Shown: positions 17,525-64,000, counted from the stretch's first letter. The stretch is 64,000 bases of DNA from an uncultured virus (IMG/VR IMGVR_UViG_3300021399_000104) (IMGVR_UViG_3300021399_000104); one strand, 5' to 3'. The notes: generated by a model not told the origin, from the letters alone. Numbers and translations are program-made.

Positions 17525-17620
17525 AAGAAAAAAAAGAGAAAGTAATTATAGGGAAAAGCTATGATGAAATCTCTTTTTTTTCTGTGGACTCTCTATTCCT
17601 TATAATAAAAGATAACTATT

Positions 17621-18067: not shown

Positions 18068-18383
18068 GCTAATTCTAACAGATCTGGGTGAAAATCCTAA
18101 TATGAGTTTAGAGGAGATTAAAGATTATCTCAAAACCAAATGGAGGATTTATACCAAAGTTACTAAGATGTCATACAATCCCAACTATGGAGAAGAAGAT
18201 GAATGGAATAGAGATGGTTGGGCATATGATGACTACTATGATGAGAAACCAGGGAATGATGACAAGAGAAATTGGTTTACCGAAGACTTCAACAGATACC
18301 TTACACAAGATGAAGCCGAATGGTGGAGTGTAGTTGAGGGATTGGCTTTTGTGTCATTGTACCTGGTAAAGAAAAAACGATAA
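18036..18383 (+). CDS. Hypothetical protein
   Basis: 115 aa. Confidence 0.7.
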   Translation: MKERTAQEEAKLILTDLGENPNMSLEEIKDYLKTKWRIYTKVTKMSYNPNYGEEDEWNRDGWAYDDYYDEKPGNDDKRNWFTEDFNRYLTQDEAEWWSVVEGLAFVSLYLVKKKR

Positions 18384-18428
18384 AAAAAAATTAAAGAGAT
18401 TGGAAAATTAAATTCCTTTCTCTTTTTT
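18382..18428. terminator. Bidirectional terminator, repeated at 28757-28808
   Basis: A-tract AAAGAGATTGGAAAATTAAATTCCTTTCTCTTT T-tract between convergent genes. Confidence 0.75.
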
Positions 18429-18721
18429 TATTCTATGTCCCTAATGTTGAGATAATTATAAAACTTTTTCTTTAATATATCATCAGTATAGTAGAAGAGT
18501 TGAAGATCAAATATCATCCCCCATGTTATCACTCTAATGCTTTTATAGGTGCCTGTGCTGTTAAAGAAATAACCTTTAAAGGAGAGATAAATGGATGTTC
18601 CTATTGTTGTTTGAAAATTAAGAAATCTACCCATTGTTAATCCTATAGCGACCAGACTCCTATATTTTGTTTTATCACCATCACAAAGTCTATCTGCTAT
18701 CTTAAAATTTAATAACTTCAT
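18428..18721 (-). CDS. Array paralogue
   Basis: MKLLNFKIADRL. Confidence 0.65.
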   Translation of the reverse strand: MKLLNFKIADRLCDGDKTKYRSLVAIGLTMGRFLNFQTTIGTSIYLSFKGYFFNSTGTYKSIRVITWGMIFDLQLFYYTDDILKKKFYNYLNIRDIE

Positions 18722-18725
18722 AAGC

Positions 18726-19064
18726 TTAGCTTGTAAAAGGAAAACCTCTTCTAAATAAATGAAATGCTAGTGGATTTAAGTCATAGCTAATAAAGACTGA
18801 AGCAATGAAACCTGTCTTTTTCATAAATGCTGAGACGTGTAGCCTTTGCTGACTTATATTATAGGATGTGATAGAGAAACGCACCTCATCATTAATAAAT
18901 TCCATCCCACTCGAATACCTGCATCCATTATACTTATAAATTCTAGTAACAGCTCTTTGACATAGGTTGACTATTACTGCTATATTCTCCTTTATGAATG
19001 GATTATGACAATAACAAAGACTATGACTCAGTCCTTTAGCCAACCTCACCTGCATTATTTTCAT
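18726..19064 (-). CDS. Array paralogue
   Basis: MKIMQVRLAKGL. Confidence 0.65.
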   Translation of the reverse strand: MKIMQVRLAKGLSHSLCYCHNPFIKENIAVIVNLCQRAVTRIYKYNGCRYSSGMEFINDEVRFSITSYNISQQRLHVSAFMKKTGFIASVFISYDLNPLAFHLFRRGFPFTS

Positions 19065-19350
19065 TAATCTCTTTTATTTCTATTTTTCGTTTTGGCACTA
19101 TATCTTTACACAAGGGAACTGACACATTATATTTTCTCTGTTTTTGATTTGGATAGTGTGTTAGGTACATGATGTTTATTATCAGTTCCTGTTGTAAATC
19201 ATCAGCCCATCCAGGTATTGCATCGTAAAGACATCTGATCCACATTCCTTTTTCTGGAATATTACACTTACCAGACGCAACAGTCATTAAAATCCAAGGA
19301 ATACCAACATCTTTGAAAAATATTGCTTGTTTAATCTGCCAAAACTTCAT
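19036..19350 (-). CDS. Array paralogue
   Basis: MKFWQIKQAIFF. Confidence 0.65.
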   Translation of the reverse strand: MKFWQIKQAIFFKDVGIPWILMTVASGKCNIPEKGMWIRCLYDAIPGWADDLQQELIINIMYLTHYPNQKQRKYNVSVPLCKDIVPKRKIEIKEINENNAGEVG

Positions 19351-19645
19351 AGTTAGTAAATTTAAATCTTTTATTATGCTCCCGCTCCCTTATTAATCTT
19401 ATTTTTATCATTCGAGCAGATGACAGCTTTTGTCCTGGTTTAAAAATAATTAATTTTACAGTAGTTTCTATTAAATTAATAGACTCACATCTAGTAGGAT
19501 AAGATCGAAGTAGTAAACATTCTCCAACTAGAACAATATCTCCAACTCTATCAGACAATAAGTAGGTAAAAATAATAGACAACAGTTTCTTATGCGACTC
19601 TGTTTTGCCTAATTTCTTCGCCAATTGAACTGTCTGCTCTTTCAT
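19331..19645 (-). CDS. Array paralogue
   Basis: MKEQTVQLAKKL. Confidence 0.65.
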   Translation of the reverse strand: MKEQTVQLAKKLGKTESHKKLLSIIFTYLLSDRVGDIVLVGECLLLRSYPTRCESINLIETTVKLIIFKPGQKLSSARMIKIRLIREREHNKRFKFTNYEVLAD

Positions 19646-19923
19646 TCTATGTCATAAAAGTAGTTAATTACACAGCTCACTAACCTATTCTTTATTATCA
19701 CTACATTAAATCTACACGCCATAATTGACTTGTTTCTTGTTAAATTAACTATGTAACTATTATTATCTGTTTTTATGGGGTAGAGTAAATATTCACCTAT
19801 CTGCCAATATTCCTTCTCATTATCCTCATTATTATAATTGATAACAGTTGAAATAACTAAAGCTAGAACCTTATATATCCTTGATTTTCTTTTCTTAGCA
19901 TCAAGAAGCTGCATCAATTTCAT
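19642..19923 (-). CDS. Array paralogue
   Basis: MKLMQLLDAKKR. Confidence 0.65.
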   Translation of the reverse strand: MKLMQLLDAKKRKSRIYKVLALVISTVINYNNEDNEKEYWQIGEYLLYPIKTDNNSYIVNLTRNKSIMACRFNVVIIKNRLVSCVINYFYDIE

Positions 19924-20260
19924 ATTTGAAGGGTATTAATTGAGAATGCTTGACTTTACCAATTAAATGAAGTTTTATTCTAAATGTTTTGTTATAATAA
20001 GAATCAAGCAAATAAACCTCAATTGCATTTAGTCTTGCTCCTAGATATGCTTTATTCGACACGCGATATCTATTTCTTACGTTGTAGATGTAACCAAACT
20101 TATCAGATTTCTCATATTCCCCATTAAAACAAAAATAATCTAACTCCCAGTTAAGTACATAATAGAGAACATTTGCTAAGATGAATGGTTTTAGTTTATA
20201 TTTATTAAAGGGAGGATCAACGGGGAGTGTATTAGCTAGTTTAATTATTAGGCGCTTCAT
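19901..20260 (-). CDS. Array paralogue
   Basis: MKRLIIKLANTL (ATG at 20260). Confidence 0.65.
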   Translation of the reverse strand: MKRLIIKLANTLPVDPPFNKYKLKPFILANVLYYVLNWELDYFCFNGEYEKSDKFGYIYNVRNRYRVSNKAYLGARLNAIEVYLLDSYYNKTFRIKLHLIGKVKHSQLIPFKYEIDAAS

Positions 20261-20552
20261 AAACAACAGTAACATCAATTCGCTTTATATCAATCCTTCC
20301 TGAATGGTTATGATCAAAATAAAAATTAATAAAAGTTTCCGTTTTTTCTCCACTAATATGCTTGACTCGAATAAGATCATTATCCCAACCAAATACTACT
20401 ACTCTTTCTTGATTATCTCCATGAAATAGGTTAAACAACTTTCTTTTTGTTGGATTATAAATTAGGTCAAGCATATAGATAATGGCTGAAAAACTAGCGG
20501 TGACTTTATATCCTCTTATTCTCTTTGCGTCATGTAAATAGATTAGTTTCAT
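20241..20552 (-). CDS. Array paralogue
   Basis: MKLIYLHDAKRI. Confidence 0.65.
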   Translation of the reverse strand: MKLIYLHDAKRIRGYKVTASFSAIIYMLDLIYNPTKRKLFNLFHGDNQERVVVFGWDNDLIRVKHISGEKTETFINFYFDHNHSGRIDIKRIDVTVVYEAPNN

Positions 20553-20838
20553 TTATCTTAGCAATAAATCTAACTTCACACTGTTGCCAATATTCTTGAG
20601 AAGACCTTATACAACCAATCCAGAATTTCCTCTTTTGAACATTATAAGAAAGAATAATTATAGTTAGATTCATTCTCTTACTTTGAATATGAACATTAAG
20701 AGGAGAAGTTTGACGATTCATTGATGCAAGGCCTAGACAAGATAAATAAATAACCAAAGATCTTTCCCGACGAATTAAATCTGTCTTATTAAAATCTGCT
20801 CCCCACCAATCAGCTAGTTTATAATGAAGTAGTTTCAT
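20530..20838 (-). CDS. Array paralogue
   Basis: MKLLHYKLADWW. Confidence 0.65.
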   Translation of the reverse strand: MKLLHYKLADWWGADFNKTDLIRRERSLVIYLSCLGLASMNRQTSPLNVHIQSKRMNLTIIILSYNVQKRKFWIGCIRSSQEYWQQCEVRFIAKINETNLFT

Positions 20839-21167
20839 TCAATAAGTATTTCAGTTATTTTAAGGTGTGGTAACATTTCATAGTGAATACCCAACACAAT
20901 AGTTCTAGGTGCTCTTGTTTTATCTAACGCTAGCACTTCAATCTTCTTATATTTACAGGTTAATAAAGCAACAACTATTTCTTTATTTTCATCTTCAAAA
21001 GTTATTCCTCTTATATCATCTAAACTAGTAGGGATTGTCTTTTCATCCCTCAATAGTTGACAGATACAGTAGAATAGATAAATGGATAGGTATATTATCT
21101 TTTTAATATCATCAAATAGTGGAAACAAAGATAAACTATCTGCTTCTTTAATTTGCTTTCTTTTCAT
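20835..21167 (-). CDS. Array paralogue
   Basis: MKRKQIKEADSL. Confidence 0.65.
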   Translation of the reverse strand: MKRKQIKEADSLSLFPLFDDIKKIIYLSIYLFYCICQLLRDEKTIPTSLDDIRGITFEDENKEIVVALLTCKYKKIEVLALDKTRAPRTIVLGIHYEMLPHLKITEILIE

Positions 21168-21178
21168 CTATTATAAGG

Positions 21179-21502
21179 TTAATAATATCCTAAATTATCT
21201 AGTGAGGTAATGATAATTTCATTTCCATATCTAATGTATGTAACTTTGATATGTAAAGTAACAAATCTTGCACACCTAAAATTTAGTGATATCCAAGATC
21301 GTTTTCCATTCTTTGTTTTATTACTCCCAAATTTATCTAGAAGAATTGTGTAGTATGGATTTGATGGTCTTTTTGGAATATACTTGTTAAATTCGAATTG
21401 ATAAACAAATATAACAATCCATAAATAACAAATTTTATCGGTAGGTGAAAATATCATTGAGGATTCTAAACGTTTCGCTTTCCTAAAGTAAAATATCTTC
21501 AT
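21179..21502 (-). CDS. Array paralogue
   Basis: MKIFYFRKAKRL. Confidence 0.65.
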   Translation of the reverse strand: MKIFYFRKAKRLESSMIFSPTDKICYLWIVIFVYQFEFNKYIPKRPSNPYYTILLDKFGSNKTKNGKRSWISLNFRCARFVTLHIKVTYIRYGNEIIITSLDNLGYY

Positions 21503-21503
21503 C

Positions 21504-21815
21504 TTAGATACACCTTATTCTAAATCTAGGTAATTTGCTATTAGTTCTTTTCTTCCTTATCTCTACAACTACATGAAAATTTCTTCTAGTATTTCTGTAG
21601 ATTGAGAAATGAGGGCTACTAGCAATAACACAAATTTGAACCCTCTTACTGAAGTCACTTGATGTATAAATAAAGTCCTCTGAGTAAATTGTCTTACCCG
21701 ATTGTCTATAAATGAAATATTTAATAGCAAAGTAAATTAAAACATCAAGACAAGGCAATTTACTAACGTAGCTTTTGTCGTAAGTTTTCTTTATCTTTAA
21801 AATTATTAACTTCAT
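21504..21815 (-). CDS. Array paralogue
   Basis: MKLIILKIKKTY. Confidence 0.65.
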   Translation of the reverse strand: MKLIILKIKKTYDKSYVSKLPCLDVLIYFAIKYFIYRQSGKTIYSEDFIYTSSDFSKRVQICVIASSPHFSIYRNTRRNFHVVVEIRKKRTNSKLPRFRIRCI

Positions 21816-21875
21816 TTAATATTTTTGAATTTCATTTTGAATAAAGATTTTTGATTTAATGGAAAATTACCAGAT

Positions 21876-22193
21876 TCATATTTTATAGCTTACCTGTAGA
21901 ATTCTTCTTGTTTGTTTATCAATAGTAACTTTATATAGATTGTTAGACCAAGTGTTACTAATTGTTTTTATTATAGAGATCTTTATGGTAAATTTCCCTA
22001 GTATTTCCTTATCGATTTGCTCAATTGTTATAGTAAAGCGCTTTGATTGTATCGTCAGTAAAAATCTTTCTACGCTTTGTCTCTTATTTAGCCATTTATA
22101 AACAATATAGAATAGTAAGCAGCGTTGAAAATGGTCTAACTCAATTTTTCTTGGTTTCACCTTCTCTGCATGTCTAACACAATTAAACTTCAT
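21876..22193 (-). CDS. Array paralogue
   Basis: MKFNCVRHAEKV. Confidence 0.65.
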   Translation of the reverse strand: MKFNCVRHAEKVKPRKIELDHFQRCLLFYIVYKWLNKRQSVERFLLTIQSKRFTITIEQIDKEILGKFTIKISIIKTISNTWSNNLYKVTIDKQTRRILQVSYKI

Positions 22194-22482
22194 TAAAGAT
22201 ATAAAGAATTTTATTGTTATTATATGGGTCTATCATAACAGTCCACCCTTTAATTTTTTTAGAATCTTCAACCAGTTTAATACTAAGTCCGGTCCATTGT
22301 GAGTTCAACTGATCTCCTAGTCTCTTATATACTACTATAAATTTTTTTGGAATTAACTCAATAGCTTCATATCCTCCTCGTCCGCGGCTAATCCAAAATA
22401 ACACGGAATAGATTAAGATTGGATGGACTTTTACTCTTACAGATGTCTTCTCCTTAGCTCTCTTAATGCACACCTGTTTCAT
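22183..22482 (-). CDS. Array paralogue
   Basis: MKQVCIKRAKEK. Confidence 0.65.
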   Translation of the reverse strand: MKQVCIKRAKEKTSVRVKVHPILIYSVLFWISRGRGGYEAIELIPKKFIVVYKRLGDQLNSQWTGLSIKLVEDSKKIKGWTVMIDPYNNNKILYIFNEV

Positions 22483-22757
22483 GGCATTGTATATTCCTGA
22501 CTATAATATTTAATAGATTTATTTATTATGTTTATTGCTACTCTCCATGCTCCAATATTAATATTATTTTTCACCCTTGTTATCATTAAAAAAGTCATTG
22601 GTGGAGAAGAAGAAAGAAAATTTATTACTATCTTCTCGTGCGATCCTAATTCAATAAAACTATAAAAGCTATTGTTTATAGTATCACAAAACCAATGATA
22701 AACAGAATAAGCTACTAATGGATTTTCTTTTATCTCCTTAATGCATTTTAGCTTCAT
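22479..22757 (-). CDS. Array paralogue
   Basis: MKLKCIKEIKEN. Confidence 0.65.
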   Translation of the reverse strand: MKLKCIKEIKENPLVAYSVYHWFCDTINNSFYSFIELGSHEKIVINFLSSSPPMTFLMITRVKNNINIGAWRVAINIINKSIKYYSQEYTMP

Positions 22758-23080
22758 GCCTTTGTTACAGTATAATCAATAGCTTCTCTAAAACGTAGGA
22801 AGACTATTTTTGTAGGCACTACAGTTAGTTCATAATCTAACATAATAATCTTCATCTTTTCTCCTCCTTCATATAAGGTAAATCGAATATAGGAATTTGT
22901 GAGGTCTGTTACTTTTATGAGTAGTTTTTCTTTCTTACAGTAAAAAGTTCTTTTAAACTCATCAGAATAGAGTTTGTTAGACATCGCTAAACTTATATAA
23001 CGATGAGTAATAAAAATAAATAGTCTAGTTAGATCAGACTCATCGAACTTCTTGGCAATTTTAATGTGTAGTAATTTCAT
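22754..23080 (-). CDS. Array paralogue
   Basis: MKLLHIKIAKKF (ATG at 23080). Confidence 0.65.
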   Translation of the reverse strand: MKLLHIKIAKKFDESDLTRLFIFITHRYISLAMSNKLYSDEFKRTFYCKKEKLLIKVTDLTNSYIRFTLYEGGEKMKIIMLDYELTVVPTKIVFLRFREAIDYTVTKA

Positions 23081-23421
23081 TGAGCTATCCTCCATCTAAA
23101 ACTATCTGCCACTGCTTTGCCTGTTCTTGAATCAAACCTAGCCTCAATTTGAACAACGTCTTCATCCAAGTTTGATAAAACCATGCTGACAAAAATTCCA
23201 AAAGTAAAATCATAGTCACTTAGTTCAATAGTAGAGTTAGCACGTATCACTTTATCTATCGTTTTGGAAAGAACAGTGTCTAATATTACTAGAGCCGCAG
23301 ATGTATTCATTCCTTTAGCAACTAGATATGCCATAACTTGTATCCAATATAGTGCTTCTGGTATGGGTTTAGGTAATGATGAAGATAATGATAATATTGT
23401 CTTATAATAAATTAACTTCAT
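23077..23421 (-). CDS. Array paralogue
   Basis: MKLIYYKTILSL. Confidence 0.65.
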   Translation of the reverse strand: MKLIYYKTILSLSSSLPKPIPEALYWIQVMAYLVAKGMNTSAALVILDTVLSKTIDKVIRANSTIELSDYDFTFGIFVSMVLSNLDEDVVQIEARFDSRTGKAVADSFRWRIAQ

Positions 23422-23430
23422 TAATTCTAT

Positions 23431-23799
23431 TTAATAAGTAAATTTAAGAAACCTACTTTCGTCGCTTAGGTGATCACTTACAAGAACATGAATTATCTTA
23501 CTACTCATTACATCTGCTTTAAACGAAATATATAGAGTTCCCGGCAGATTTTTTATTGGAGAGCAAGTAATATATAGACTTCTGGGAGTAAAGGAAACAT
23601 TAAGGGAATGGGTAGTTGATTTTCTTTTTAACTCATCAACTAAAGCCACTGTTTTTGGGGTTATTCGCCATTCCTTACTTAGACTAAATAAAATAGGAAG
23701 AGAGTAACCTACGATAAGATAAATGATGTCTAGATTAACAAAAATGGTGAAAGATTCTTGTATCATCTTTTTACTTAATCTTATTCCAGATAATTTCAT
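23431..23799 (-). CDS. Array paralogue
   Basis: MKLSGIRLSKKM. Confidence 0.65.
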   Translation of the reverse strand: MKLSGIRLSKKMIQESFTIFVNLDIIYLIVGYSLPILFSLSKEWRITPKTVALVDELKRKSTTHSLNVSFTPRSLYITCSPIKNLPGTLYISFKADVMSSKIIHVLVSDHLSDESRFLKFTY

Positions 23800-24161
23800 C
23801 TTTTCTTTTCATAAACAAAGAAGTATTTTATCCTTCTTCTAGATACATCTTTATTTTTATCTTCCTCGTCGGGCTTTCCTATTATAACATTCACTAGTTT
23901 TCCCTTTTTAACTGTTATAAAGTATTGTTTTAAAATTTCATATAATTTTCCTCTAATGACAATCTTGAAGGTTATATCATCAAAGTTTAAAACTTTACCT
24001 TCAACAGCTCGTCTTCCCCCAAGAGATTCCACTAGGATTATTCCATTACAACACATTCTAGCCATTAAAAGTCTATAGAAGCCAAAGATAATTGTGCCTT
24101 TGTCTGAAAAATTATGAACTTTTTCAAACTCCTTTAATAATTTAACTATTTTCAATTTCAT
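23796..24161 (-). CDS. Array paralogue
   Basis: MKLKIVKLLKEF. Confidence 0.65.
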   Translation of the reverse strand: MKLKIVKLLKEFEKVHNFSDKGTIIFGFYRLLMARMCCNGIILVESLGGRRAVEGKVLNFDDITFKIVIRGKLYEILKQYFITVKKGKLVNVIIGKPDEEDKNKDVSRRRIKYFFVYEKKR

Positions 24162-24627
24162 TTTGACTTCGCCATTCAGCCTTTAGTTTAGATACCACGT
24201 CATAATTTGGGCTATTACATGGATTATCCTCTCTAGTTTGATAAATTTGTCCAGGGTAAGTATCTAGAATAAATCGGACTACTCCTTGACTTCTAGATTT
24301 TCCTGCCAAGCAATGTATAATAAAATCATCACCAATATTCTTCTCAATAAAATCCACTATCTCCTTAGCTTGGTCTTTAGATAGTCCATAAAATATGTGT
24401 CCTTTCCAATCTATCCAATCAGAGGAAACATCATCAAAGTCAAGATTTAATACTTTAGGTCCTCCCGGTAGTTTATGTTCTTGTGTTTCGGTAAGGTAAT
24501 AGTCTTGACATTCTTTAGTATTGCAGATAGAGATAATTGATAATCCTTCTGGCAATGTCTCATCCCATTTATTTAATTCCACTAAGTCTAAGAATTCAAA
24601 ATAGGAGCAACAATATAGTTTCTTCAT
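24142..24627 (-). CDS. Dual-specificity / tyrosine phosphatase family protein
   Basis: HCLAGKSRS (CX5R) active site, FDD acid loop. Confidence 0.85.
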   Translation of the reverse strand: MKKLYCCSYFEFLDLVELNKWDETLPEGLSIISICNTKECQDYYLTETQEHKLPGGPKVLNLDFDDVSSDWIDWKGHIFYGLSKDQAKEIVDFIEKNIGDDFIIHCLAGKSRSQGVVRFILDTYPGQIYQTREDNPCNSPNYDVVSKLKAEWRSQNEIENS

Positions 24628-25136
24628 AATCTCTTTAGTTTTTCGACAGTTAATTTTAGGAGCCATTCGTCCTTAAAATTTGCGCAGAGAATTTCAGGGG
24701 ACAAATTTAATGTGGTAGAAGCTGTCTTGATATAACCACTTCTCAAGACATTAGAATCCACATAATACTCTGTCCCTTTTGGTATCTGCGCTTTAATTAG
24801 GACGATATTTTTTCTCTCTGGTAGTTGTGATTCTATATCTTCCATAAGTTTTTCAAGAGAGCCAGAAATAGGAAAAAAGGAGTAAACCCATCCACTTTTA
24901 AATTCCGGCCCTCTTAATTTTTCTTTTTCATCTCCCGTTATTGTCTTCTTAGTAACCAGAGCATTAAGGAAGGCAGTTTTAAGGGCCCATTTAGTTCTTA
25001 TCTTTTTAGGGAACAATCGAAACCAAAATGACTTCTCTTCCCTTTCGATAACTAGAACCTTTACTACTTCCATTGTTGTATTACTTCGATAGACTTCAGA
25101 TTCTCTTCTCTTGACAATAGGTAAATCAATTCTCAT
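24624..25136 (-). CDS. Phage hypothetical protein
   Basis: IPKGTEYY motif. Confidence 0.7.
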   Translation of the reverse strand: MRIDLPIVKRRESEVYRSNTTMEVVKVLVIEREEKSFWFRLFPKKIRTKWALKTAFLNALVTKKTITGDEKEKLRGPEFKSGWVYSFFPISGSLEKLMEDIESQLPERKNIVLIKAQIPKGTEYYVDSNVLRSGYIKTASTTLNLSPEILCANFKDEWLLKLTVEKLKRL

Positions 25137-26026
25137 TTATAGTGACTTTTATAGATAAACGTTCCTACCTTACTATTCCTAATCAAACTTAATACAGTAT
25201 TCCTTAAGATTGGATGAAGACCCGTTTCTAAGTCTGGTAATAGTATAGTTGCGTTGTTAGAAAATGCTATTAGCGCCACAATTACCAAAACTTTCTTAAA
25301 TCCAGTTCCCATCATTGATATGCTAAATTCATCTTTAAAGCCTGGAGTTAAAATACCATTCTTAGTAACACCAGTACATGCATCACCAAATAACGCAGGC
25401 ATAACTCTATTCCAAAGATCTATTACTTTTGTTTCTTGAGTTAAATTAAGAGCCTGGAGTTGGTCATAAGAGAAGAAATGATCTAAGAAAGTACCAGGGC
25501 TAGTACGAGAAGTTACAGTATATAGTAGAGTATCAAGATTAATTATACTAAAAATCTTGGTATCAAAATAATTTCTAATGTCTAGACCAAATTTGGTTTG
25601 CATGAGTAAAAGAGGAAGGTTATTTTTATAATCTCCATCATATGTAGAATAGGAGAATGAGTCTAGAAGATTGTCAAACTCGATAAAAGACTCGCCATAG
25701 GCATCACCAACTTCAGGTATATTTGATTCACTATTCCAATGCAAGTATAAGACTCCACCAATGGTTAATGTCTCTGACTGTAACTTTTCCTCTTCAAACA
25801 CAGACTTATACGCCAAGCCATTTGAAAACTCCACTTCAATACCCTCTTTATAAACCTTCCAATAATTAATCAAGTGGGTTAAAACATTATTATACTTCTC
25901 ATCAAAGTTATACCACTCACTTAATTTCTCCTCATTACTAGGAAAATTATAGATGTTGTCAGTATCACTTGGTGGAAATTCTAACGTTATACCATTCCAC
26001 GTTGCTTTTACTAATTTCATAGACAA
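25133..26026 (-). CDS. Degenerate ABC-type ATPase-like protein
   Basis: SMMGTGFKK signature-like and LLPDLETGLHP Walker B/D-loop-like motifs; no Walker A. Confidence 0.55.
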   Translation of the reverse strand: MSMKLVKATWNGITLEFPPSDTDNIYNFPSNEEKLSEWYNFDEKYNNVLTHLINYWKVYKEGIEVEFSNGLAYKSVFEEEKLQSETLTIGGVLYLHWNSESNIPEVGDAYGESFIEFDNLLDSFSYSTYDGDYKNNLPLLLMQTKFGLDIRNYFDTKIFSIINLDTLLYTVTSRTSPGTFLDHFFSYDQLQALNLTQETKVIDLWNRVMPALFGDACTGVTKNGILTPGFKDEFSISMMGTGFKKVLVIVALIAFSNNATILLPDLETGLHPILRNTVLSLIRNSKVGTFIYKSHYK

Positions 26027-26319
26027 TCAATTATAACAGAGTAAATCCAATCAAGTATATCCTGTGCTGGTTGAGGGCTATTAATATCGAATGTTTTGTA
26101 GCAATAATTTATACTACTATAATTAGAGTATTCCAACCCTGATACCGTTCCATATAATAAACCCTGTGGTACAAAGTTAGGAACAATAGAAATATGGTAA
26201 TCACTAATAGTTATATTAAGTGTCGTATCCTCTGTTCCAAACCAATAAATATTAATATCTCCAAATGTACTATAAAGTTCAGTTATTAAAACTTCAAATA
26301 TCTTCTTAATATTCATCAT
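26017..26319 (-). CDS. Hypothetical protein
   Basis: 100 aa. Confidence 0.6.
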   Translation of the reverse strand: MMNIKKIFEVLITELYSTFGDINIYWFGTEDTTLNITISDYHISIVPNFVPQGLLYGTVSGLEYSNYSSINYCYKTFDINSPQPAQDILDWIYSVIIDCL

Positions 26320-28756: not shown

Positions 28757-28808
28757 CAAAAAAAAAATTAAAGAGATTGGAAAATTAAATTCCTTTCTCT
28801 TTTTTTTC
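28757..28808. terminator. Bidirectional terminator, copy of 18382-18428
   Basis: Identical hairpin sequence. Confidence 0.75.
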
Positions 28809-28813
28809 TCTCC

Positions 28814-31067: not shown

Positions 31068-33131
31068 TTAAAGTTGATCAATTGCTTCCTTGTATTGATC
31101 TAAGTTTTCAACATACAACTCTCCTTTAACACCAACTCTCTTAATGATAGCTTCGAATTCTTCATCAGAGAGCCTACCACGTTTACCTAATTCTAAGGCA
31201 GTTTCTTTCAAAAGGCCGAGGTTGTCTTGTAGAATTGCCTTCGTTGCTTTCTCCATTGTCTCCCATTCTAATAGTAAGAGTTGCTCAAGATTAGTATCAT
31301 CAAATCCTACTCTATATGCATCTTCAAACTTAGGGCATGTACTAGAATGTTCAAATACTCTAGATCCAAAATATCCACCTTTATATGCATATCGCGACAA
31401 GAGCTCCCAAGATTTTTTCAAGTCATCTATAGAACCTAATGGAATTTCCGACCTTTGAGTATCTTTGAAAACTAATCTCTCTGCCTCATAACCTGCCAAT
31501 CCAATCATTACTTGAGACTGTATGCTTCGACGGGTATAAAAGCTTAGGGTATCTTCTTTTCGACCTCTAGAAATACAATAGCCGCCTTTTCCATCTGATG
31601 TTACTGCTACAATTTCAATAGGTATAATTCCTTTACTTACATATGAAACAATCGCGTGACCAGCTTCATGAACAGCAACAGCATATTTGTACTTTGATAA
31701 ATTCGGATCCCTTAACTCTCCAAGAACTAATCTGACCTGTTTTTTATCAACTTCTCCGTTTTCATACTTTAATAGGATAGTCTTGAATTGAACATTATAG
31801 CCAGATTCAGGATCCTCTACATCTATCTCACATGCCTTACCCTTCAATACTACATCAGATAAGAATGGGACAAGATATGATGAAATCGTTGTAAAGATTG
31901 GTCGTGCTCCTTGAGTTGGATAGACACCTTCACAATATAATAGTTTCCTCATATTATCAGAAACTTTCACGGCAAATCCATTCTCATCCTGAAATTTTCT
32001 CTCAATTCTATGTACTTCGTTTTCAATAATTAATTCGAAGTCTGATTTTCTGAGAGAAGGATATAGGATGATATTATTGCCGAGTCTTGCTATCTGCTCT
32101 GCCCTAAATCTTTTCTTTAATGAATTCTTAATGTCTGAGATGGTTATACCTTTTGTCTCCTTGTAAAAAACATCAGCATCAACATCTGCCGTAATCTCAA
32201 GACCCTCAATAAACGCTTCATCAATGTTACCTAAAACAAATACTAAAGACTTCCTACAATCAACTTGCTTTGGTTTACTTGAATTAGTTAACATTGTCTT
32301 TAACTCAGTCAATAATTCTTGAACCGTTTCGAGACTCTTTAGATGAGCATAGTATTCTGGTCGAGTTATATTAGAACCCCTCTTATTCATGTAAAGTAGA
32401 TTGTTTATGACTTGAGAAGGTAAAATAACAGACAGCTCCTCTTCCTCATCATCACCATCTTCTTTCTTTGGATTAACTGTTGGTAATATAGAATCTCCAA
32501 AATATAACCAACCTAATGTTTGTCTAAGACTTCTACTATCCTCCTTATTAACCAGACGTAGATTATGAATAGGGATAACTCTACCTAATTCTTGTACCCA
32601 GGCCTCAAGATCAGAATAATAAGCGTTAACAGCTGAAATTCTCCAATCTGTGTCAATATAATCTAATATACCAGAATCAACAATCTGCCAGAGAGGACGA
32701 AGATTTGATTTCTCTACCTCCGATCCACTCTCATCTAACGTTCTGGCATACTGAAATTCATCAATCACAAATACCATATTATCTGACCCAACTGCTTCAG
32801 TCTCATCATCATCATCATCAATACAAAGATACTTACGAATTAGATCTGTTAAATTATCAGACTTATTATTATTACTCTCCTGGCCACAATCGAAAAATAC
32901 TGCTCGATTAAGACCTAAGAGCCCTAATAAACGACGAACTAAGGAGGTTTTGCCAGTTCCAGTCATACCAAATAATGATATAACAACTGGACGCTCAATG
33001 ACCTCTGGCGTAATATACCACGATTTAACACAGGTACATACACGATCAATAATATCATCAATCCCGACAAACTCCTTCTTTAACGTCTCTTTCGCATCTT
33101 CAAGTAATTTGATCTTTTCTAATTTTTCCAT
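31068..33131 (-). CDS. Clp-type AAA+ ATPase fused to M41 (FtsH-like) metalloprotease
   Basis: GMTGTGKT, VIDEFQ, FRAEQIARL, GARP; HEAGH and LAGYEAE. Confidence 0.8.
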   Translation of the reverse strand: MEKLEKIKLLEDAKETLKKEFVGIDDIIDRVCTCVKSWYITPEVIERPVVISLFGMTGTGKTSLVRRLLGLLGLNRAVFFDCGQESNNNKSDNLTDLIRKYLCIDDDDDETEAVGSDNMVFVIDEFQYARTLDESGSEVEKSNLRPLWQIVDSGILDYIDTDWRISAVNAYYSDLEAWVQELGRVIPIHNLRLVNKEDSRSLRQTLGWLYFGDSILPTVNPKKEDGDDEEEELSVILPSQVINNLLYMNKRGSNITRPEYYAHLKSLETVQELLTELKTMLTNSSKPKQVDCRKSLVFVLGNIDEAFIEGLEITADVDADVFYKETKGITISDIKNSLKKRFRAEQIARLGNNIILYPSLRKSDFELIIENEVHRIERKFQDENGFAVKVSDNMRKLLYCEGVYPTQGARPIFTTISSYLVPFLSDVVLKGKACEIDVEDPESGYNVQFKTILLKYENGEVDKKQVRLVLGELRDPNLSKYKYAVAVHEAGHAIVSYVSKGIIPIEIVAVTSDGKGGYCISRGRKEDTLSFYTRRSIQSQVMIGLAGYEAERLVFKDTQRSEIPLGSIDDLKKSWELLSRYAYKGGYFGSRVFEHSSTCPKFEDAYRVGFDDTNLEQLLLLEWETMEKATKAILQDNLGLLKETALELGKRGRLSDEEFEAIIKRVGVKGELYVENLDQYKEAIDQL

Positions 33132-33583
33132 TTAATGTAAGTGTTAATATAATAATCTAATGACTCTCTTCTTATCTCTGGGTCCGAAGAAGAATAAAAT
33201 ACAAAGTTTCCAAATCTTGACAACTCATCTATAATCCCAATCATTGTATCCTCAACACTCTTTGGATAATGATTGAAATGAGGAAAAGCTATCATAAAAC
33301 TAAACTCGGAAAAACTAAATACCTTAACTAACTTCGGCTCTATCTCTTGAACCAATGTAAAAATGTCAACAAAACGCTGAGTAATCTGTTTATCTGGCAA
33401 AGAGAATAACCAACACCGAATATCTAAATCCGAATTGATAAACTCTTTCTTAATAGCATCACCCTTAGAACTATCAGCCGTTTCTTCATTAACCTCTTGC
33501 AGTGGATCAAAAGAATCTAGTATTAATTTAGCCGGTATCCTGTCCATATAAGGTTGAGCCGGTATATATAATGCTTTTATCAT
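33119..33583 (-). CDS. Hypothetical protein
   Basis: 154 aa. Confidence 0.7.
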   Translation of the reverse strand: MIKALYIPAQPYMDRIPAKLILDSFDPLQEVNEETADSSKGDAIKKEFINSDLDIRCWLFSLPDKQITQRFVDIFTLVQEIEPKLVKVFSFSEFSFMIAFPHFNHYPKSVEDTMIGIIDELSRFGNFVFYSSSDPEIRRESLDYYINTYIKWKN

Positions 33584-34281
33584 TTTATTATAGATTCAAT
33601 TAGTTTATCTTTCATTTCTTTAGTAAGGATTTGAGTCGAGAAAGAATATCCAAAACCATCAGTGTCGGTAAAACAAAAATACGAATAACCTTTGTCATCC
33701 TTTCCTAACCATATGTCCTTAATATTATCCTTCTGCTCTTTTAGTAAGGGAGTAATGACATGTTCAATTAAATCCCTAGAAACAGAAAGAGAATAAGGTG
33801 TTGATAAAGTAGATATAAGAGCATCAAAACTAATCAACCCCTCCGCTATCTTCTTACTCATATCAACTAACTCTGAATCTGATGCACAAGGAGCAATAGA
33901 CTTCATTAACCACATAACCGATTCTAAAGTATTCTCTAATAGATCACCAGGAAAATCATTATCACTGTCCTCCCCCTGATCTAAAGCCTGATAAATCAAT
34001 GCAAGTGCTGATAAAATCTCAGAATCTGGCTTAGTATCATAATCTTGATAACTAATAACCATCCTCTTAGTACCCTCACGCTGTGGATATAATGAAATAT
34101 ATGCCGCCTCTGTGATAAGCTTAAATTGTGTAGTATCAATTAACCTACTTAAAGCCTGATAAAACGAGGATGTGATTAAGCCAATATTAATCAAAGCTTT
34201 ATCACTAATCCCCTCAGCCTCACGATAAGTTTCAAGATAACGACACAATCCTAATAAATAATTAATGTGTTTATCTTTCAT
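33580..34281 (-). CDS. Hypothetical protein
   Basis: 233 aa. Confidence 0.7.
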   Translation of the reverse strand: MKDKHINYLLGLCRYLETYREAEGISDKALINIGLITSSFYQALSRLIDTTQFKLITEAAYISLYPQREGTKRMVISYQDYDTKPDSEILSALALIYQALDQGEDSDNDFPGDLLENTLESVMWLMKSIAPCASDSELVDMSKKIAEGLISFDALISTLSTPYSLSVSRDLIEHVITPLLKEQKDNIKDIWLGKDDKGYSYFCFTDTDGFGYSFSTQILTKEMKDKLIESIIK

Positions 34282-34301
34282 TTTCTTAGTCTTTTTATCA
34301 T

Positions 34302-34334
34302 TTCAAGTATAAGGTTTCTATTCCTTATAAATGA
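34302..34334. promoter_or_regulatory. Back-to-back divergent promoter cassette
   Basis: Copy of 26321-26342. Confidence 0.7.
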
Positions 34335-60204: not shown

Positions 60205-60566
60205 TGAAGGAAATTTACTTTTGTTTGGATGCCGTTTATAATAATAATGACCTAGTAATAGAGAAAAGACGTTCTGGAGCTTATATTGGAAACTCTTATG
60301 AACAGGTCCTTTATGCTCTTGCTACCAATCAAAGCATCATAATCACTACTAATACAAGCTTTCTGAAATTTATGGAAGGCTATAATATCTACCTAGTCTA
60401 TCAGAAAGTCGCTATTAGAATTAAACCTGGCATGAAACTGGATGATGGAACAGTGCTAAAGGAATCTGATAACCTCCTAGAACTGTTTATGGAAGGAAAA
60501 TTTCATAAGAGTCTTGGTTTTTCTATGCCTAACTTTAAAGGAAACAATGAAACTGATAAACCTTAA
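60204..60566 (+). CDS. Hypothetical protein
   Basis: 120 aa. Confidence 0.7.
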   Translation: MKEIYFCLDAVYNNNDLVIEKRRSGAYIGNSYEQVLYALATNQSIIITTNTSFLKFMEGYNIYLVYQKVAIRIKPGMKLDDGTVLKESDNLLELFMEGKFHKSLGFSMPNFKGNNETDKP

Positions 60567-60867
60567 GCTATACAAGAAAATAGTTAAGGATATAGTTGTG
60601 AAAGCGCCAGAGTTGAAGAAAGTTGAATTCTTCCAGGCCTTTAGTTGCTTCCTTTATATATCTAATGACGACTCTTATGAAGATAATTCAATAAGTTTTC
60701 CCCAATCCTATTCTTCTAAGTCTGCTCGGTGGTTTTATTATAAATTTTCAAAGAGGGAAATGAGACTCGCTTTTAGTAAGGACTGTTATAGTTTGATGAT
60801 TGCTGACTTTAAATTACGTCCATTAAAACTAAAAACAGTCGAATATTTTTTGTATGAAACTAGTTGA
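60547..60867 (+). CDS. Array paralogue
   Basis: MKLINLKLYKKI. Confidence 0.65.
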   Translation: MKLINLKLYKKIVKDIVVKAPELKKVEFFQAFSCFLYISNDDSYEDNSISFPQSYSSKSARWFYYKFSKREMRLAFSKDCYSLMIADFKLRPLKLKTVEYFLYETS

Positions 60868-61147
60868 TCTTAAGAATTTTCGAAGGTTAACAGGTAATCA
60901 AGAGAAAGAGCTAAAAGCATACGACTTCTTTCAGACTTTTATTGATGCTTCCTATTGTTTTCGCATTGGGTCTTCCTATTATTTTAATTATCCCACTAAT
61001 AGATATATTGTGTCCACTCAATGGATTTATAGAGTGAGAAAAGAGTGGGATATTGTGGATGTTTTCTTATGCAAAAATTATACTAGCGTAGAAGTGATGG
61101 GAACTTTTTCTCTTAAACCTTTTCGATTACATGAAATTAAGAGATAA
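60854..61147 (+). CDS. Array paralogue
   Basis: MKLVDLKNFRRL. Confidence 0.65.
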   Translation: MKLVDLKNFRRLTGNQEKELKAYDFFQTFIDASYCFRIGSSYYFNYPTNRYIVSTQWIYRVRKEWDIVDVFLCKNYTSVEVMGTFSLKPFRLHEIKR

Positions 61148-61535
61148 AACCTTAGTAGATATCATTAAAGACACACTGAAAAAAGAAAAAATCGAGAGTA
61201 GAGAAGCTATAGTAGCATTTATACGATGTTATTATAGATGTTTTTCTCGACACATTAGAGGGATTTATAAGACAACACAAACAGAAATAATACCGGGAGA
61301 GCATGGAACTGTGGTAGGAATTTCTGAAGAGAGGAGTGTCACATTATATTATTACCCATCTGTTCAATATATCTGTGCTTTTGCTATAGGAGTGACTAAA
61401 GATAAAATCAGAATAAAAAGATATAGTTACAATGAAGCAAGCAACGATAAAGGCTATATACAAACCATTGATCGAGGTTATAAACGAAACTTTTCCGAAA
61501 CAGAGTGTAATAAACGGAAAGGTTCTAATAACTAA
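61131..61535 (+). CDS. Array paralogue
   Basis: MKLRDKTLVDII. Confidence 0.6.
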   Translation: MKLRDKTLVDIIKDTLKKEKIESREAIVAFIRCYYRCFSRHIRGIYKTTQTEIIPGEHGTVVGISEERSVTLYYYPSVQYICAFAIGVTKDKIRIKRYSYNEASNDKGYIQTIDRGYKRNFSETECNKRKGSNN

Positions 61536-61794
61536 AGAACTAAAGCTTGAGGTGTTTAGATGCATTTGTGGCTATTTGTATCATAAAAGGGTTCGTAGCA
61601 CATTCTTTGGTAAGTTTGGTATTAGAATACTTAACTGTAATCCATATGTTAGAAATTACATAGAGGTTAGAATTGATGAACTGGATGACTTCTGTGTTAG
61701 AATTACTATGGACCTATATGGAAAGATTTACGATTGGGAAAGAAATGAAAATCTCCGACTTAGTAAAACTGAAAGAGATAGCAGATCAGTTTAG
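61432..61794 (+). CDS. Array paralogue
   Basis: MKQATIKAIYKPL. Confidence 0.6.
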   Translation: MKQATIKAIYKPLIEVINETFPKQSVINGKVLITKELKLEVFRCICGYLYHKRVRSTFFGKFGIRILNCNPYVRNYIEVRIDELDDFCVRITMDLYGKIYDWERNENLRLSKTERDSRSV

Positions 61795-62053
61795 TGTTGG
61801 TAAGATATTTGATTTTAACGTGGAGAAAGTAGAAATAAATGAAGAGATAAGGCTAGAATTAGTTAGATCTCTCATGACTTTCTGGGATTTTACAAGGCCT
61901 AAACTTAATAAATTAGTGTGGAGACGGGTAAGACGACCAAACAACAGAGCTACTTACTTTATAGCTTTCATCTCCACCAACGTTTTTATTAACCTAGTAA
62001 GAATCAATCTTTATAACGGAAGGATTGTTAACTTTGAAATACGCAGATCTTAA
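61745..62053 (+). CDS. Array paralogue
   Basis: MKISDLVKLKEIA. Confidence 0.65.
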   Translation: MKISDLVKLKEIADQFSVGKIFDFNVEKVEINEEIRLELVRSLMTFWDFTRPKLNKLVWRRVRRPNNRATYFIAFISTNVFINLVRINLYNGRIVNFEIRRS

Positions 62054-62423
62054 GTTGACAAAGAGATTAGCAACAGCATTAACCCTCTATTTCTATCCAG
62101 GTAAAAGTCTTATATCAGAAACTTATTACCCTTATTCAACTACATTTATTAAAACCAACTATATCGTTAAACAAGAAGATGTTAAAAAAGCACGTTGGGG
62201 ATTACTTTATACTTGGTTAGTGTGGAAACAGGATAGAAGAGATTTTCATATTTCATATCATAAACTTCCTAACGAGAATATACACTGGGTGATTCAATAT
62301 TATAAAGAAAACGGTCAGATAGATTTTCTTTTTTACCCACCTTATGAACCAACGAAGCCTTATCTTATATATAGCTTAGTTAATAATAGGATAACAACAC
62401 TAATACAGCCATTAAACTATTAG
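62034..62423 (+). CDS. Array paralogue (TTG start)
   Basis: LKYADLKLTKRLA...DFLFYPP. Confidence 0.65.
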   Translation: MKYADLKLTKRLATALTLYFYPGKSLISETYYPYSTTFIKTNYIVKQEDVKKARWGLLYTWLVWKQDRRDFHISYHKLPNENIHWVIQYYKENGQIDFLFYPPYEPTKPYLIYSLVNNRITTLIQPLNY

Positions 62424-62812
62424 ATATAAGACTGACAAAGAGAGTAGCAATAGAATTAACTCCCTATTTCTATCCTGGTAAAAATGTTGTGTCGCATGTG
62501 GAGGAATTTTATCTTTATACAACAACATTTATTAAAGCCAATTATACTGTTAAACAAGGAGATCTCGGAAAAGCACTTTGGGGTTTATTGTATTCTTGGC
62601 TAGTGTGGAAACAAGATAGAGATGCTTTAGTTACTTATCATAAACCTCCTAATAATGTAGCTGAGAATATATATTGGTTGGTTCAGTATCATCAAAACGG
62701 CCAGATAGATTTTCTTTTTTATCCGCCTATAGATGATAATAAACCTGGACAAAGGCCTTATTTACGATTTCATCTAGATAATAATAAAATAACAACAACA
62801 AAACTAGAATGA
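62411..62812 (+). CDS. Array paralogue (ATT at homologous start)
   Basis: IKLLDIRLTKRVA in frame with 62489 ORF. Confidence 0.6.
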   Translation: MKLLDIRLTKRVAIELTPYFYPGKNVVSHVEEFYLYTTTFIKANYTVKQGDLGKALWGLLYSWLVWKQDRDALVTYHKPPNNVAENIYWLVQYHQNGQIDFLFYPPIDDNKPGQRPYLRFHLDNNKITTTKLE

Positions 62813-63210
62813 AACTACTAGATATGAGAGTGACAAAGGAGATAGCCAATGCATTAACTCCATATTTCTCCACTGGTAAAAGTGTTGTGTCAGAAGTAAT
62901 TCAACGTTTTACTTTTGCACATGTTAAAGTCAATTATACCGTTAAGCAGGGAGATCTTGAAAAAGCACTTTGGGGATTTTTAATTACGTGGCTAAAGTGG
63001 AATCAGAGTAGGAAAGAGGTTTATATTTTACCTTTCGACTACCCTAATAGAGCCAGGAATATGTGTTGGGTGATTAAATATTATAGAGGAAAAAGTCTGG
63101 TAGATTTTATTTTTTATTCGCCTGTAGATGAAACCAGGAAAAATCCTTATTTACGATTACGACTCAGTTTATATAAAAATAAAATAATAGCAACACGACT
63201 AGAAGAATGA
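62809..63210 (+). CDS. Array paralogue
   Basis: MKLLDMRVTKEIA. Confidence 0.7.
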   Translation: MKLLDMRVTKEIANALTPYFSTGKSVVSEVIQRFTFAHVKVNYTVKQGDLEKALWGFLITWLKWNQSRKEVYILPFDYPNRARNMCWVIKYYRGKSLVDFIFYSPVDETRKNPYLRLRLSLYKNKIIATRLEE

Positions 63211-63647
63211 AACAGCTAGATATGAGACTAATAAAAGAAATAGCTAATGCATTAATTCCCTATTTCTCCCCAGGTAACACTTTAACTCTATACTTTACTA
63301 ATAGTCTAGTGAAACCAATCGAGATGAATTATGTGTTAGGGGAAGGTGATTTTGAGAATGCGATGATTGGATTTAATATCATTTGTGGTTACGAATTAAG
63401 GCGATGGACTATAGGTGTGGATGGAATGATGGGATATCCTTTTTCTAATTTAGCGTGGGAGTCATGTAGAGAGTCTAGAAATGAGATAGACTTCTTCTTT
63501 CGCCCACCAAAAGATGATATAAACTTCGGGCCACAATATCTCAGGTTTACTGTAAAAGATTATCATCTGGAAAGTGTTGATGTTGTAAAAAATCCAGGTT
63601 ATCATTATGAAATTAATAGAACTGAGGAAAGCAAAACACCTAGCTAA
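63207..63647 (+). CDS. Array paralogue
   Basis: MKQLDMRLIKEIA. Confidence 0.7.
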   Translation: MKQLDMRLIKEIANALIPYFSPGNTLTLYFTNSLVKPIEMNYVLGEGDFENAMIGFNIICGYELRRWTIGVDGMMGYPFSNLAWESCRESRNEIDFFFRPPKDDINFGPQYLRFTVKDYHLESVDVVKNPGYHYEINRTEESKTPS

Positions 63648-64000
63648 AGAATTAATTCATTATTATCCACCAGGGCATCAACTAAAATATACTCTCTCAG
63701 CCCAACCCTCTGCTATCAATCCTATCAATTTTCCTCGAGCTCTTTTATGTTTTTTATTAACGGAGATGTCTATAAAGAATAACAAACCACAAACTTTAAA
63801 ACATGATGCCGTTGGATCTTGTAGAATAAAAAACATATTGTGGGTGGGGGTTTATAGAAAAGCGAAGGAGGATTTTGAGTACACATTTTACCCACCAAGA
63901 AATCAAGAGGAATATTCTGCTCCTTATATTGAAGTAACTATTGGGAAAGATGAGAAGATTATTATTAAAAAAGCCTCATTAAATTGTTCCCACACTAATT
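63607..64000 (+). CDS. Array paralogue, runs off window edge
   Basis: MKLIELRKAKHLA...YTFYPP. Confidence 0.65.
   Translation, partial: MKLIELRKAKHLAKELIHYYPPGHQLKYTLSAQPSAINPINFPRALLCFLLTEMSIKNNKPQTLKHDAVGSCRIKNILWVGVYRKAKEDFEYTFYPPRNQEEYSAPYIEVTIGKDEKIIIKKASLNCSHTN

Follow-up and report, generated by a model that had tools for sequence, protein, structure and literature searches.

Internal proteins found in T-even phages have been described as highly diverse defense proteins in which only the capsid-targeting sequence (CTS) is conserved (PMC3012670, PMC9026906). For phage T4, the first 10 residues are reported to be sufficient for packaging, propeptides comprise 10–19 residues, and the internal proteins are of small size and basic character (PMC9026906); the protein IPI* is described as an injected anti-restriction protein (PMC3012670, PMC9026906). 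In this study, a stretch of 64,000 nucleotides (nt) from an uncultured virus (IMGVR_UViG_3300021399_000104), referred to as the window, was analyzed with respect to two tandem arrays of small genes, array A with 18 and array B with at least 10 members, whose products begin with a common peptide of about 12 residues. The window represents 64 kb of a genome that is probably at least 330 kb in size.

As far as the cited accounts describe the T4 internal proteins, the array products resemble them in being small and mostly basic, in their differing bodies, in their location in variable accessory loci and in a short N-terminal peptide starting at Met1. They differ in that the L/I-x-E cleavage motif is not conserved in array A (5/18 members), for which another protease specificity is conceivable, and in that the members are far more numerous (at least 28) and stand in tight tandem arrays in an unrelated phage lineage. 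A further comparison is provided by the giant Salmonella phage SPN3US, whose paralogue family B is reported to comprise 20 members (gps 83, 138–154, 161 and 237), which were found in the head by mass spectrometry and differ in copy number among related phages (PMC5694885). The likeness lies in a large, mostly tandem paralogue family of a giant phage; however, the SPN3US members are described as recognizable paralogues by PSI-BLAST, whereas the bodies of array A are nearly unalignable. Unlike the T4 internal proteins and SPN3US family B, arrays A and B are known from genes alone, and they are without sequence relation to either (no PHROG or Pfam match in the comparison with T4).

For Bacillus phage G, approximately 35 zinc-ribbon copies are described as a lineage-specific expansion of unknown function (PMC7824862). 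Here too, one small protein was amplified many times within a single jumbo-phage lineage, but in contrast to the recognizable zinc-ribbon domain, all that is left is a terminal motif of 12 residues, which is common to two arrays with unalignable bodies. Moreover, the amplification of an accessory gene in T4 experimental evolution was described as a gene accordion (10.1101/2022.04.14.488369). Tandem duplication of accessory genes is common to accordions and to the locus studied here; in accordions, however, the copies are recent and near-identical and undergo expansion and contraction, whereas the copies of array A are ancient, saturated and collinear in the sampled strains. The gene amplified in the T4 experiment was reportedly a counter-defense gene. 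As these sources describe, it is already known that small proteins have undergone lineage-specific expansion in jumbo phages (PMC7824862, PMC5694885). The present family is new in itself, and the sharing of its N-terminal motif by two unalignable sets of bodies represents a useful lead. A literature search returned no description of the array A family, which is weak evidence of its absence from print.

The N-terminal motif of arrays A and B

In the ORF listing of the window, positions 18428–24161 are occupied by 18 successive open reading frames (ORFs) of the minus strand, termed m01–m18, with products of 92–122 amino acids (aa). For m06 and m15 the in-frame ATG codons at 20260 and 23080 were taken as starts, so that all 18 products begin with MK. 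Coordinates, gene number and product sizes were correctly given in the original prediction for this stretch. The consensus start of the products comprises 12 residues and reads M-K-h-x-x-h-[KR]-x-A-K-x-h (h, hydrophobic). Met1, Lys2 and a hydrophobic residue at position 6 occur in every member (18/18 each); K or R at position 7 and a hydrophobic residue at position 12 are each present in 15/18, L, I or F at position 3 in 14/18, A at position 9 in 13/18 and K at position 10 in 11/18.

The strict pattern MK...[h][KR].A was matched by 10 array A members and by 0 of the 185 other ORFs of at least 50 aa in the window. Using a leave-one-out weight matrix limited to positions 3–13, a median score of 7.4 bits was obtained for the array A members, compared with a mean of −9.8 bits for 43 other MK-starting frames; tested against the 35 MK-starting frames located outside array B, the difference yielded p = 2e-9 (Mann–Whitney). 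The MK-type motif claimed originally is confirmed by these counts and scores, and its separation from other MK-starting frames contradicts an explanation by translation-start bias. Lys2 is encoded by AAA in 10 members and by AAG in 8, and all four alanine codons are used for Ala9. These mixed codons point to selection acting on the peptide and not on an RNA or DNA signal. Within the first 12 residues, neither a gap nor an insertion, deletion or N-terminal extension was observed in any array A member. The conserved N-terminal element is a gapless, basic, amphipathic helix of 12 residues that always starts at Met1.

A variant of this start, M-K-L-x-D/E-h-K/R-x-x-K-x-I-A, is carried by the products of array B (Table 1). 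The members of array B are clearly interrelated (mean column identity of 28%), five of them contain an 'F-Y-P-P'-type motif, and database searches placed them exclusively in the same phage lineage. When scored with the array A matrix, MK-starting frames of array B occupied the top three ranks among the 43 control frames and scored higher than the other MK-starting frames (p = 6e-4). Likewise, the best non-self matches to the hidden Markov model (HMM) of each array were mostly proteins of the other array. In an hhalign comparison of array A with array B, only columns 1–13 were aligned (E = 0.027, probability 1.8%). Judged from these comparisons, one short N-terminal peptide is present on two sets of bodies between which no similarity is detectable, and this shared motif constitutes the main new result. 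It shifts the balance toward a tag and away from a mere element of the fold. The docking helix proposed originally, or an address helix, gains weight in that array B shares only this motif with array A, and the 12-residue helix is probably an address or docking tag. The best non-self match of the array A HMM, a 100-aa gene at 26017–26319 (E = 0.023), lacks the motif and was not counted as a member.

Behind the motif, array A products contain a hydrophobic 11-mer, the start of which varies between residues 14 and 41, and their C-terminal parts exceed those of control ORFs in strand-type periodicity (0.52 vs. 0.42, p = 0.005). Both observations agree with the hydrophobic helix and the beta-rich-looking C-terminal half described originally; Chou–Fasman propensities separated neither the N-terminal from the C-terminal halves nor array A from the controls. 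The characterization of the products as basic and hydrophobic holds insofar as 16/18 members have an isoelectric point (pI) of 8.8–10.2, the exceptions being m09 and m16. In part it is an effect of composition, since the low guanine-plus-cytosine (GC) content of array A (29.9% vs. 34.8% in the whole window) enriches I, K, L, Y and F.

Origin, strain variation and distribution of the array genes

Among the array A members, a full-length blastp alignment was obtained only for m13 and m14 (31% identity over 89 aa, E = 3e-4). All other matches at E ≤ 0.1 were confined to the N-termini, except for one out-of-register match between m06 and m07, and weaker internal blastp alignments among the members were not significant. 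With a leave-one-out HMM from which the first 12 residues had been removed, 6/18 members scored above all but at most 6 of 100 shuffles, and 12/18 were indistinguishable from shuffles (mean z of 1.06). Smith–Waterman comparison of the bodies resulted in a mean z of 0.24 for the 153 array A pairs versus −0.13 for 144 array–control pairs (p = 0.0013). Five pairs of bodies exceeded a z of 3, and three of these five are neighbors (m13–m14, m05–m06 and m06–m07; hypergeometric p = 0.01). The statement that the paralogues share only an N-terminal motif was therefore nearly right: most bodies are unalignable, but m13 and m14 align over their full length. Body similarity being marginal after residue 12, the N-terminal helix is the one element that was kept, as had been supposed.

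Since residual body similarity is highest in neighbors and a relic of a gene start precedes m11, the data support an old tandem duplication as the origin of array A, which would have been followed by divergence near saturation. The relic in question is the seven-codon mini-frame in the gap between m12 and m11 (Table 1), which probably represents a former gene start; 27 nt of this gap match the start of m18 at 85% identity (repeat family D4). A C-terminal 'h-x-[YW]-polar' pattern, defined post hoc, was found in 11/18 members versus 7/72 controls. It was rejected as a second shared motif, as the [YN]-E in several members corresponds to the ATGAA of the next gene read in another frame. Y-E arises from the overlap in m04, m06 and m07, and N-E from the same overlap in m03, m08 and m13. 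At six junctions (19036–20838 and 22183–22482), the DNA encoding the motif of the next gene also encodes, in another frame, the last 3–9 codons of the upstream gene. Being products of the overlap, the [YN]-E tails provide no independent evidence of homology.

The array A stretch is densely coding (98.5%). Stop-free frames of at least 90 codons number 18 on the coding strand and 0 on the opposite one; when the letters of the stretch were shuffled 500 times, such frames averaged 0.13 and never exceeded 3. Neighboring genes mostly overlap, as originally described, namely at 12/17 junctions (six by 4 nt and six by 11–29 nt), and gaps of 1–60 nt are present at 5/17. A metagenomic contig (L003) is 96.5% identical to the array over positions 22348–23977 and covers six genes with 57 mismatches, no indel and no stop. 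By simple count, these differences comprise 25.5 synonymous and 31.5 non-synonymous changes, corresponding to a ratio of non-synonymous to synonymous polymorphism (pN/pS) of 0.33, with values of 0–0.47 per gene. The open frames, in comparison with the shuffles, together with the intact frames and the pN/pS in L003, establish that the genes of array A are real. Between strains, the substitution pattern indicates purifying selection, which may be relaxed; the diversifying selection postulated originally is not supported by this comparison, the pN/pS being 0.33 and every frame being intact. Four replacements in L003 fall within the first 12 residues, at positions 4, 8, 11 and 12. Positions 4, 8 and 11 are among the least conserved of the motif, and the exchange of Met by Ile at position 12 retains a hydrophobic residue. 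Furthermore, in the two most diverged orthologue pairs 11/12 of the first residues are kept, at identities of 79% (m02) and 76% (b02) for the whole proteins.

The array A stretch or strains of it were present in runs of three animal gut metagenome studies. Scanning of metagenomes with m17 retrieved only the same phage (L002, 99.98%) and the one 96.5% strain (L003). Contigs from an RNA library of what is probably the source sample match m01 over 18436–18672 and m02 over 18754–19059, in both cases at 100%, which gives a hint of expression, bearing in mind that DNA can occur in such libraries. In a run from another study, X4, a diverged strain is represented by short contigs in which array A is collinear over 19183–24414. 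In the m05 gene of this strain, positions 19718–19890 are swapped in frame for 176 unalignable letters, and the first 11 codons still align. Its m12 gene is truncated by insertions of 4 nt and 8 nt, in agreement with a 79-aa variant on record (P0009). In the X4 comparison, no reliable gain or loss of a whole gene was observed; large 'skips' in the strain comparison were rejected as evidence of gain or loss since their sides comprise just 20–24 letters at low depth. The gene accordion suggested by the original prediction is supported with regard to an old origin by tandem duplication, but not as a present-day process, given the collinear X4 array and the lack of reliable gain or loss.

Database searches returned almost exclusively the phage itself. 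None of the 18 array A members matched a PHROG at E ≤ 0.01 or reached a Pfam cut-off, and no PDB sequence match was found at E ≤ 10. Searching 1.84 billion representatives with the array A profile resulted in 14 proteins at E ≤ 0.001; of these, 13 correspond to members encoded by the phage itself or to near-identical variants, and the remaining one is a spurious repeat protein. A word-indexed search of 5.8 billion clusters yielded nothing beyond these own members and variants, and the array A DNA had no match among 50,697 phage records. Scanning IMG/VR with the 174-aa gene upstream of array A, with m13, with a 709-aa neighbor and with a four-member array B alignment retrieved no relative, the single match (L001) being an 18-residue chance match. 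A protein search with an SbcC-like gene retrieved only relatives at ≤27% identity, and there is thus no cultured relative whose arrays could be compared. Identical proteins are encoded on a 330,285-bp contig on record. On this sequence evidence, the families of both arrays occur only within a single lineage of a very large, uncultivated gut phage, and the original statement that no known family is recognizable stands: there is no Pfam, PHROG or PDB match and no relative outside the lineage.

AlphaFold2 models of m13 and m15 were built with paralogue alignments. The m15 model (predicted local distance difference test, pLDDT, of 60.4; predicted template modeling score, pTM, of 0.51) consists of helices at residues 2–10 and 16–33 followed by five strands. 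Its conserved N-terminal helix is the block of lowest confidence, with a pLDDT of 49 versus 70 for helix 2. The m13 model (pLDDT 41.6) comprises helices at 2–12 and 21–32 and four strands. Both models are weak and show the same order of elements; as they share most of their alignment, this agreement is not independent. Foldseek returned 0 matches at E ≤ 0.001 for the m15 model against the PDB. In a wide VIA-align search with the same model, the pseudopilin GspK ranked best (Z 6.0, root-mean-square deviation 3.4 over 84 aligned residues), with ComZ at Z 5.6, both below the tool's stated noise level and obtained with a query model of pLDDT 60. In the ESM Atlas, m13 and b08 had no usable neighbor, their own models there reaching a pLDDT of 0.40 and 0.45, respectively.

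Possible uses of the N-terminal helix

Several features argue for a terminal tag over a helix belonging to the core of the fold. The motif is gapless from Met1, with charged as well as hydrophobic positions kept; the linker behind it is variable, as the hydrophobic helix starts anywhere between residues 14 and 41; and the motif forms the least confident block of the m15 model. Moreover, it is better kept than the body in diverged orthologues and is common to two unalignable families. The m05 gene of the X4 strain also behaves in a tag-like manner, as its body was replaced and its first codons were retained.

Loading into the capsid for co-injection is tentatively proposed as the most likely use of such a tag. 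The N-terminal helix would then act as an address, connected to the body through a variable-length linker, and would bring many different small and mostly basic bodies (16/18 in array A) to one common site, most likely the assembling prohead. Tagged proteins would be packed alongside the DNA and would reach the next host by injection, as is the case for the T4 capsid-targeting sequence, and the bodies would represent a panel of host-directed effectors acting, e.g., against host defenses. Taken as a whole, the proposition that a giant gut phage unrelated to T4 independently evolved a 12-residue capsid tag that loads at least 28 mini-effectors, from two or more arrays, for co-injection is doubtful, albeit conceivable.

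A number of observations weigh against capsid loading. In the 64-kb window no head gene is recognizable except for a ClpP-type protease, which may not be a prohead protease because it strongly matches cellular ClpP (186 bits). The T4-type [LI]-x-E motif occurs within residues 1–22 in just 5/18 array A members and in 4/10 array B members, in each array at varying positions, and no other conserved cleavage site is evident in the N-termini of array A. Within their operon, the array A genes follow a phosphatase-like gene, and the region is devoid of recognizable structural genes. The very hydrophobic second helix is unlike the T4 internal proteins. Furthermore, the evidence stems from genes and covers 64 kb of a genome of probably at least 330 kb, and a tag with a different destination, or a helix docking to a partner in the cytoplasm, would agree with the same data.

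Provided that the tag is an address label, a whole class of proteins would be defined by it, comprising at least 28 genes within 64 kb and probably further ones in the remainder of the genome of approximately 330 kb; it would also offer a simple handle on their common destination and on what giant gut phages inject or deploy against their hosts. The principle of a constant tag with variable cargo, to date established for T4, would also have arisen in an unrelated lineage and on a larger scale. In the case of a capsid tag, the arrays would encode a large modular arsenal of injected counter-defense or takeover proteins, and the tag could be reused for packaging foreign proteins.

The docking helix just mentioned would make the array products early binders in the cytoplasm: they would remain in the infected cell, the helix would dock to one shared partner of the host or the phage, e.g., a polymerase, a ribosome or a chaperone, and the bodies would recruit or block different targets. 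This corresponds to the original interpretation, in which no packaging is involved, and is conceivable but uncertain. The motif evidence fits it equally well, the operon begins with non-structural genes including the one for the phosphatase-like protein, and the region is free of recognizable structural genes; arrays of small accessory proteins are, moreover, described for a jumbo phage, namely Bacillus phage G (PMC7824862). However, the motif is fixed at the N-terminus without an extension in any of 28 copies, which is more typical of a terminal signal than of an interaction helix, although the latter is still conceivable.

It is unlikely that the motif is a fold element only, i.e., the first helix of one alpha-alpha-beta fold, with arrays A and B belonging to one superfamily that diverged past detection. 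Such a fold is suggested by the two AlphaFold2 models, in which two helices are followed by four to five strands, and by array B, where a helix, a hydrophobic helix with an aromatic residue and strand-like segments likewise succeed one another. The small Ala9 and the hydrophobic positions 3, 6 and 12 would suit helix packing, and the residual body similarity within array A is weak but significant. On the other hand, the conserved positions include Lys or Arg of surface type at 2, 7 and 10, the linker in front of helix 2 ranges in length between 14 and 41 residues, the conserved helix is modeled with the lowest confidence in m15, and the agreement between the models, both of which were derived from paralogue alignments, is not independent. 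In addition, hhalign extended the comparison of arrays A and B no further than column 13. Should the arrays nevertheless represent only a diverged fold family, they would be a further example of an orphan expansion in a jumbo phage, of value mainly as raw material for screens of anti-defense or host-takeover genes.

A role in membrane insertion or export is rather improbable. In this case, the basic N-terminus and the hydrophobic stretch would together form a long signal peptide or anchor, possibly with a role in superinfection exclusion. Every array A member indeed has a basic N-terminus followed by a hydrophobic stretch of 10–16 residues, and the best, if weak, structural neighbors are the pseudopilins GspK and ComZ, in which a hydrophobic N-terminal helix is placed on a sheet. 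However, their Z values lie under the noise level of the tool, a 19-residue Kyte–Doolittle mean of at least 1.6 is reached by only 1/18 array A and 0/10 array B members, and array B shares the tag without a comparable hydrophobic stretch. Furthermore, an n-region of approximately 13–40 residues would be unusually long, and the prepilin-type cleavage motif G/A-[FMLIV]-[ST]-L-[LIV]-E was found in 0/18 array A members.

A degron or adaptor tag, by which an AAA plus ClpP or an FtsH-like protease of the phage would destroy early effectors on schedule, or by which the array products would deliver targets to it, is very unlikely. N-terminal recognition signals of ClpX substrates that start with Met followed by a basic and a hydrophobic residue have been described, and the phage encodes ClpP, an AAA ATPase and an AAA plus M41 protease at 31–36.5 kb. 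These genes are, however, located 7–12 kb from array A and in other transcription units. A connection of the array products to these proteases, as suggested originally, is not supported by the data, and the anti-defense role suggested alongside it is conjectural. We know of no phage precedent for such a tag. Jumbo-phage ClpP is thought to act on host proteins, according to the description available (PMC7824862).

Finally, a set of degenerate helix-turn-helix (HTH) regulators or other DNA binders is highly improbable: the K-x-A-K-x-L and I-Y helix resembles the first two helices of excisionase/MerR- or XRE-type proteins only by eye (e.g., in m01, m02, m04 and m05) and most members are basic, but 0/28 proteins match any Pfam HTH family at E ≤ 10 (HMMER filters drop many weak matches), no PDB sequence match exists at E ≤ 10, the second helix is nearly all hydrophobic and 18 residues long in the m15 model, and neither fold search has an HTH protein among its listed matches (approximately the best 50 each, for a low-confidence model).

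Layout and genomic surroundings of the arrays

The genes of both arrays and the features flanking array A are compiled in Table 1.

Table 1. Coordinates, strands and characteristics of the array A and array B genes and of adjacent features in the window.
Feature	Coordinates	Strand	Remarks
Hairpin	18382..18434	.	53 nt between A-run and T-run; 3' end of array A, facing convergent plus-strand genes
m01	18428..18721	-	97 aa; last gene of array A; 99% variant on record (P0004)
m02	18726..19064	-	112 aa; orthologue P0006 79% identical
m03	19036..19350	-	104 aa; 29-nt overlap with m02
m04	19331..19645	-	104 aa
m05	19642..19923	-	93 aa; body similarity to m06, z = 3.5
m06	19901..20260	-	119 aa from ATG 20260; open frame extends to TTG 20278
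m07	20241..20552	-	103 aa; body similarity to m06, z = 3.05
m08	20530..20838	-	102 aa
m09	20835..21167	-	110 aa; pI 6.7
m10	21179..21502	-	107 aa; 92% variant is P0013
m11	21504..21815	-	103 aa
m12–m11 gap	21816..21875	-	60 nt with seven-codon mini-frame MKFKNIK plus stop, just before m11
m12	21876..22193	-	105 aa; 79 aa in another strain (P0009)
m13	22183..22482	-	99 aa; blastp pair with m14; AlphaFold2 pLDDT 41.6
m14	22479..22757	-	92 aa; blastp pair with m13
m15	22754..23080	-	108 aa from ATG 23080; AlphaFold2 pLDDT 60.4
m16	23077..23421	-	114 aa; pI 6.2; most diverged member between strains (pS 0.18, pN 0.067)
m17	23431..23799	-	122 aa; sole array A member with 19-residue Kyte–Doolittle mean ≥1.6
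m18	23796..24161	-	121 aa; first gene of array A
Four upstream genes	24142..26319	-	100 aa, 297 aa, 170 aa and 174 aa; no terminator room before m18
Phosphatase-like gene	24142..24666	-	174 aa; directly upstream of array A; phrog_5614 match
Array B	60547..64000	+	At least 10 tandem genes, 97–146 aa; runs past window end
Array B gene	60547..60867	+	ORF
Array B gene	60854..61147	+	ORF
Array B gene	61131..61535	+	ORF
Array B gene	61432..61794	+	ORF
Array B gene	61745..62053	+	ORF
Array B gene	62025..62423	+	ORF
Array B gene	62410..62812	+	ATT in place of ATG start
Array B gene	62809..63210	+	ORF
Array B gene	63207..63647	+	ORF
Array B gene	63607 to beyond 64000	+	ORF

Based on the terminal hairpin and the four upstream genes on the same strand, array A constitutes the distal portion of a single long operon-like unit. 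A second copy of the hairpin, 96% identical (family D1), is located at 28759–28811, also at the end of convergent transcription units, and a related inverted copy was found at 17526–17547. The 53-nt hairpin probably represents a reused two-way terminator. A scan for sigma-70 promoters and terminators returned fewer promoter-like sites than were found in shuffles and missed the hairpin, and is uninformative for this organism. The 174-aa protein encoded directly upstream of array A contains an HC(X5)R(S) loop and aligns weakly to the dual-specificity phosphatases DUSP16 and DUSP22 (E 0.022–0.28).

A proteolysis module is encoded at 31068–36466. It comprises an FtsH-like protein with AAA, ClpB_D2-small and Peptidase_M41 domains but no obvious membrane part (31068–33131, minus strand), an AAA ATPase (34267–35574, plus strand) and ClpP (35783–36466, plus strand; PF00574 match of 186 bits). 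Further along the window, genes for topoisomerase II subunits are located at 39700–41322 and 43283–44638, with an HNH endonuclease gene at 41465–42691 between them, an arrangement resembling a homing-endonuclease insertion. On the minus strand at 5111–6346, a 411-aa protein is encoded which matches phrog_506 'transposase' (E = 3e-53) and may represent an IS200/IS605-type TnpB-like gene inside the phage genome.

In three metagenome runs, the summed contig depth peaked at 21724–21937, with values of 136, 43 and 94 compared with approximately 5–10 elsewhere, and many loose contig ends are located at 21783–21847. A short AT-rich element of the m12–m11 gap seems to recur in many other contigs; it may represent a regulatory element present in repeated copies, or just sequence of low complexity.

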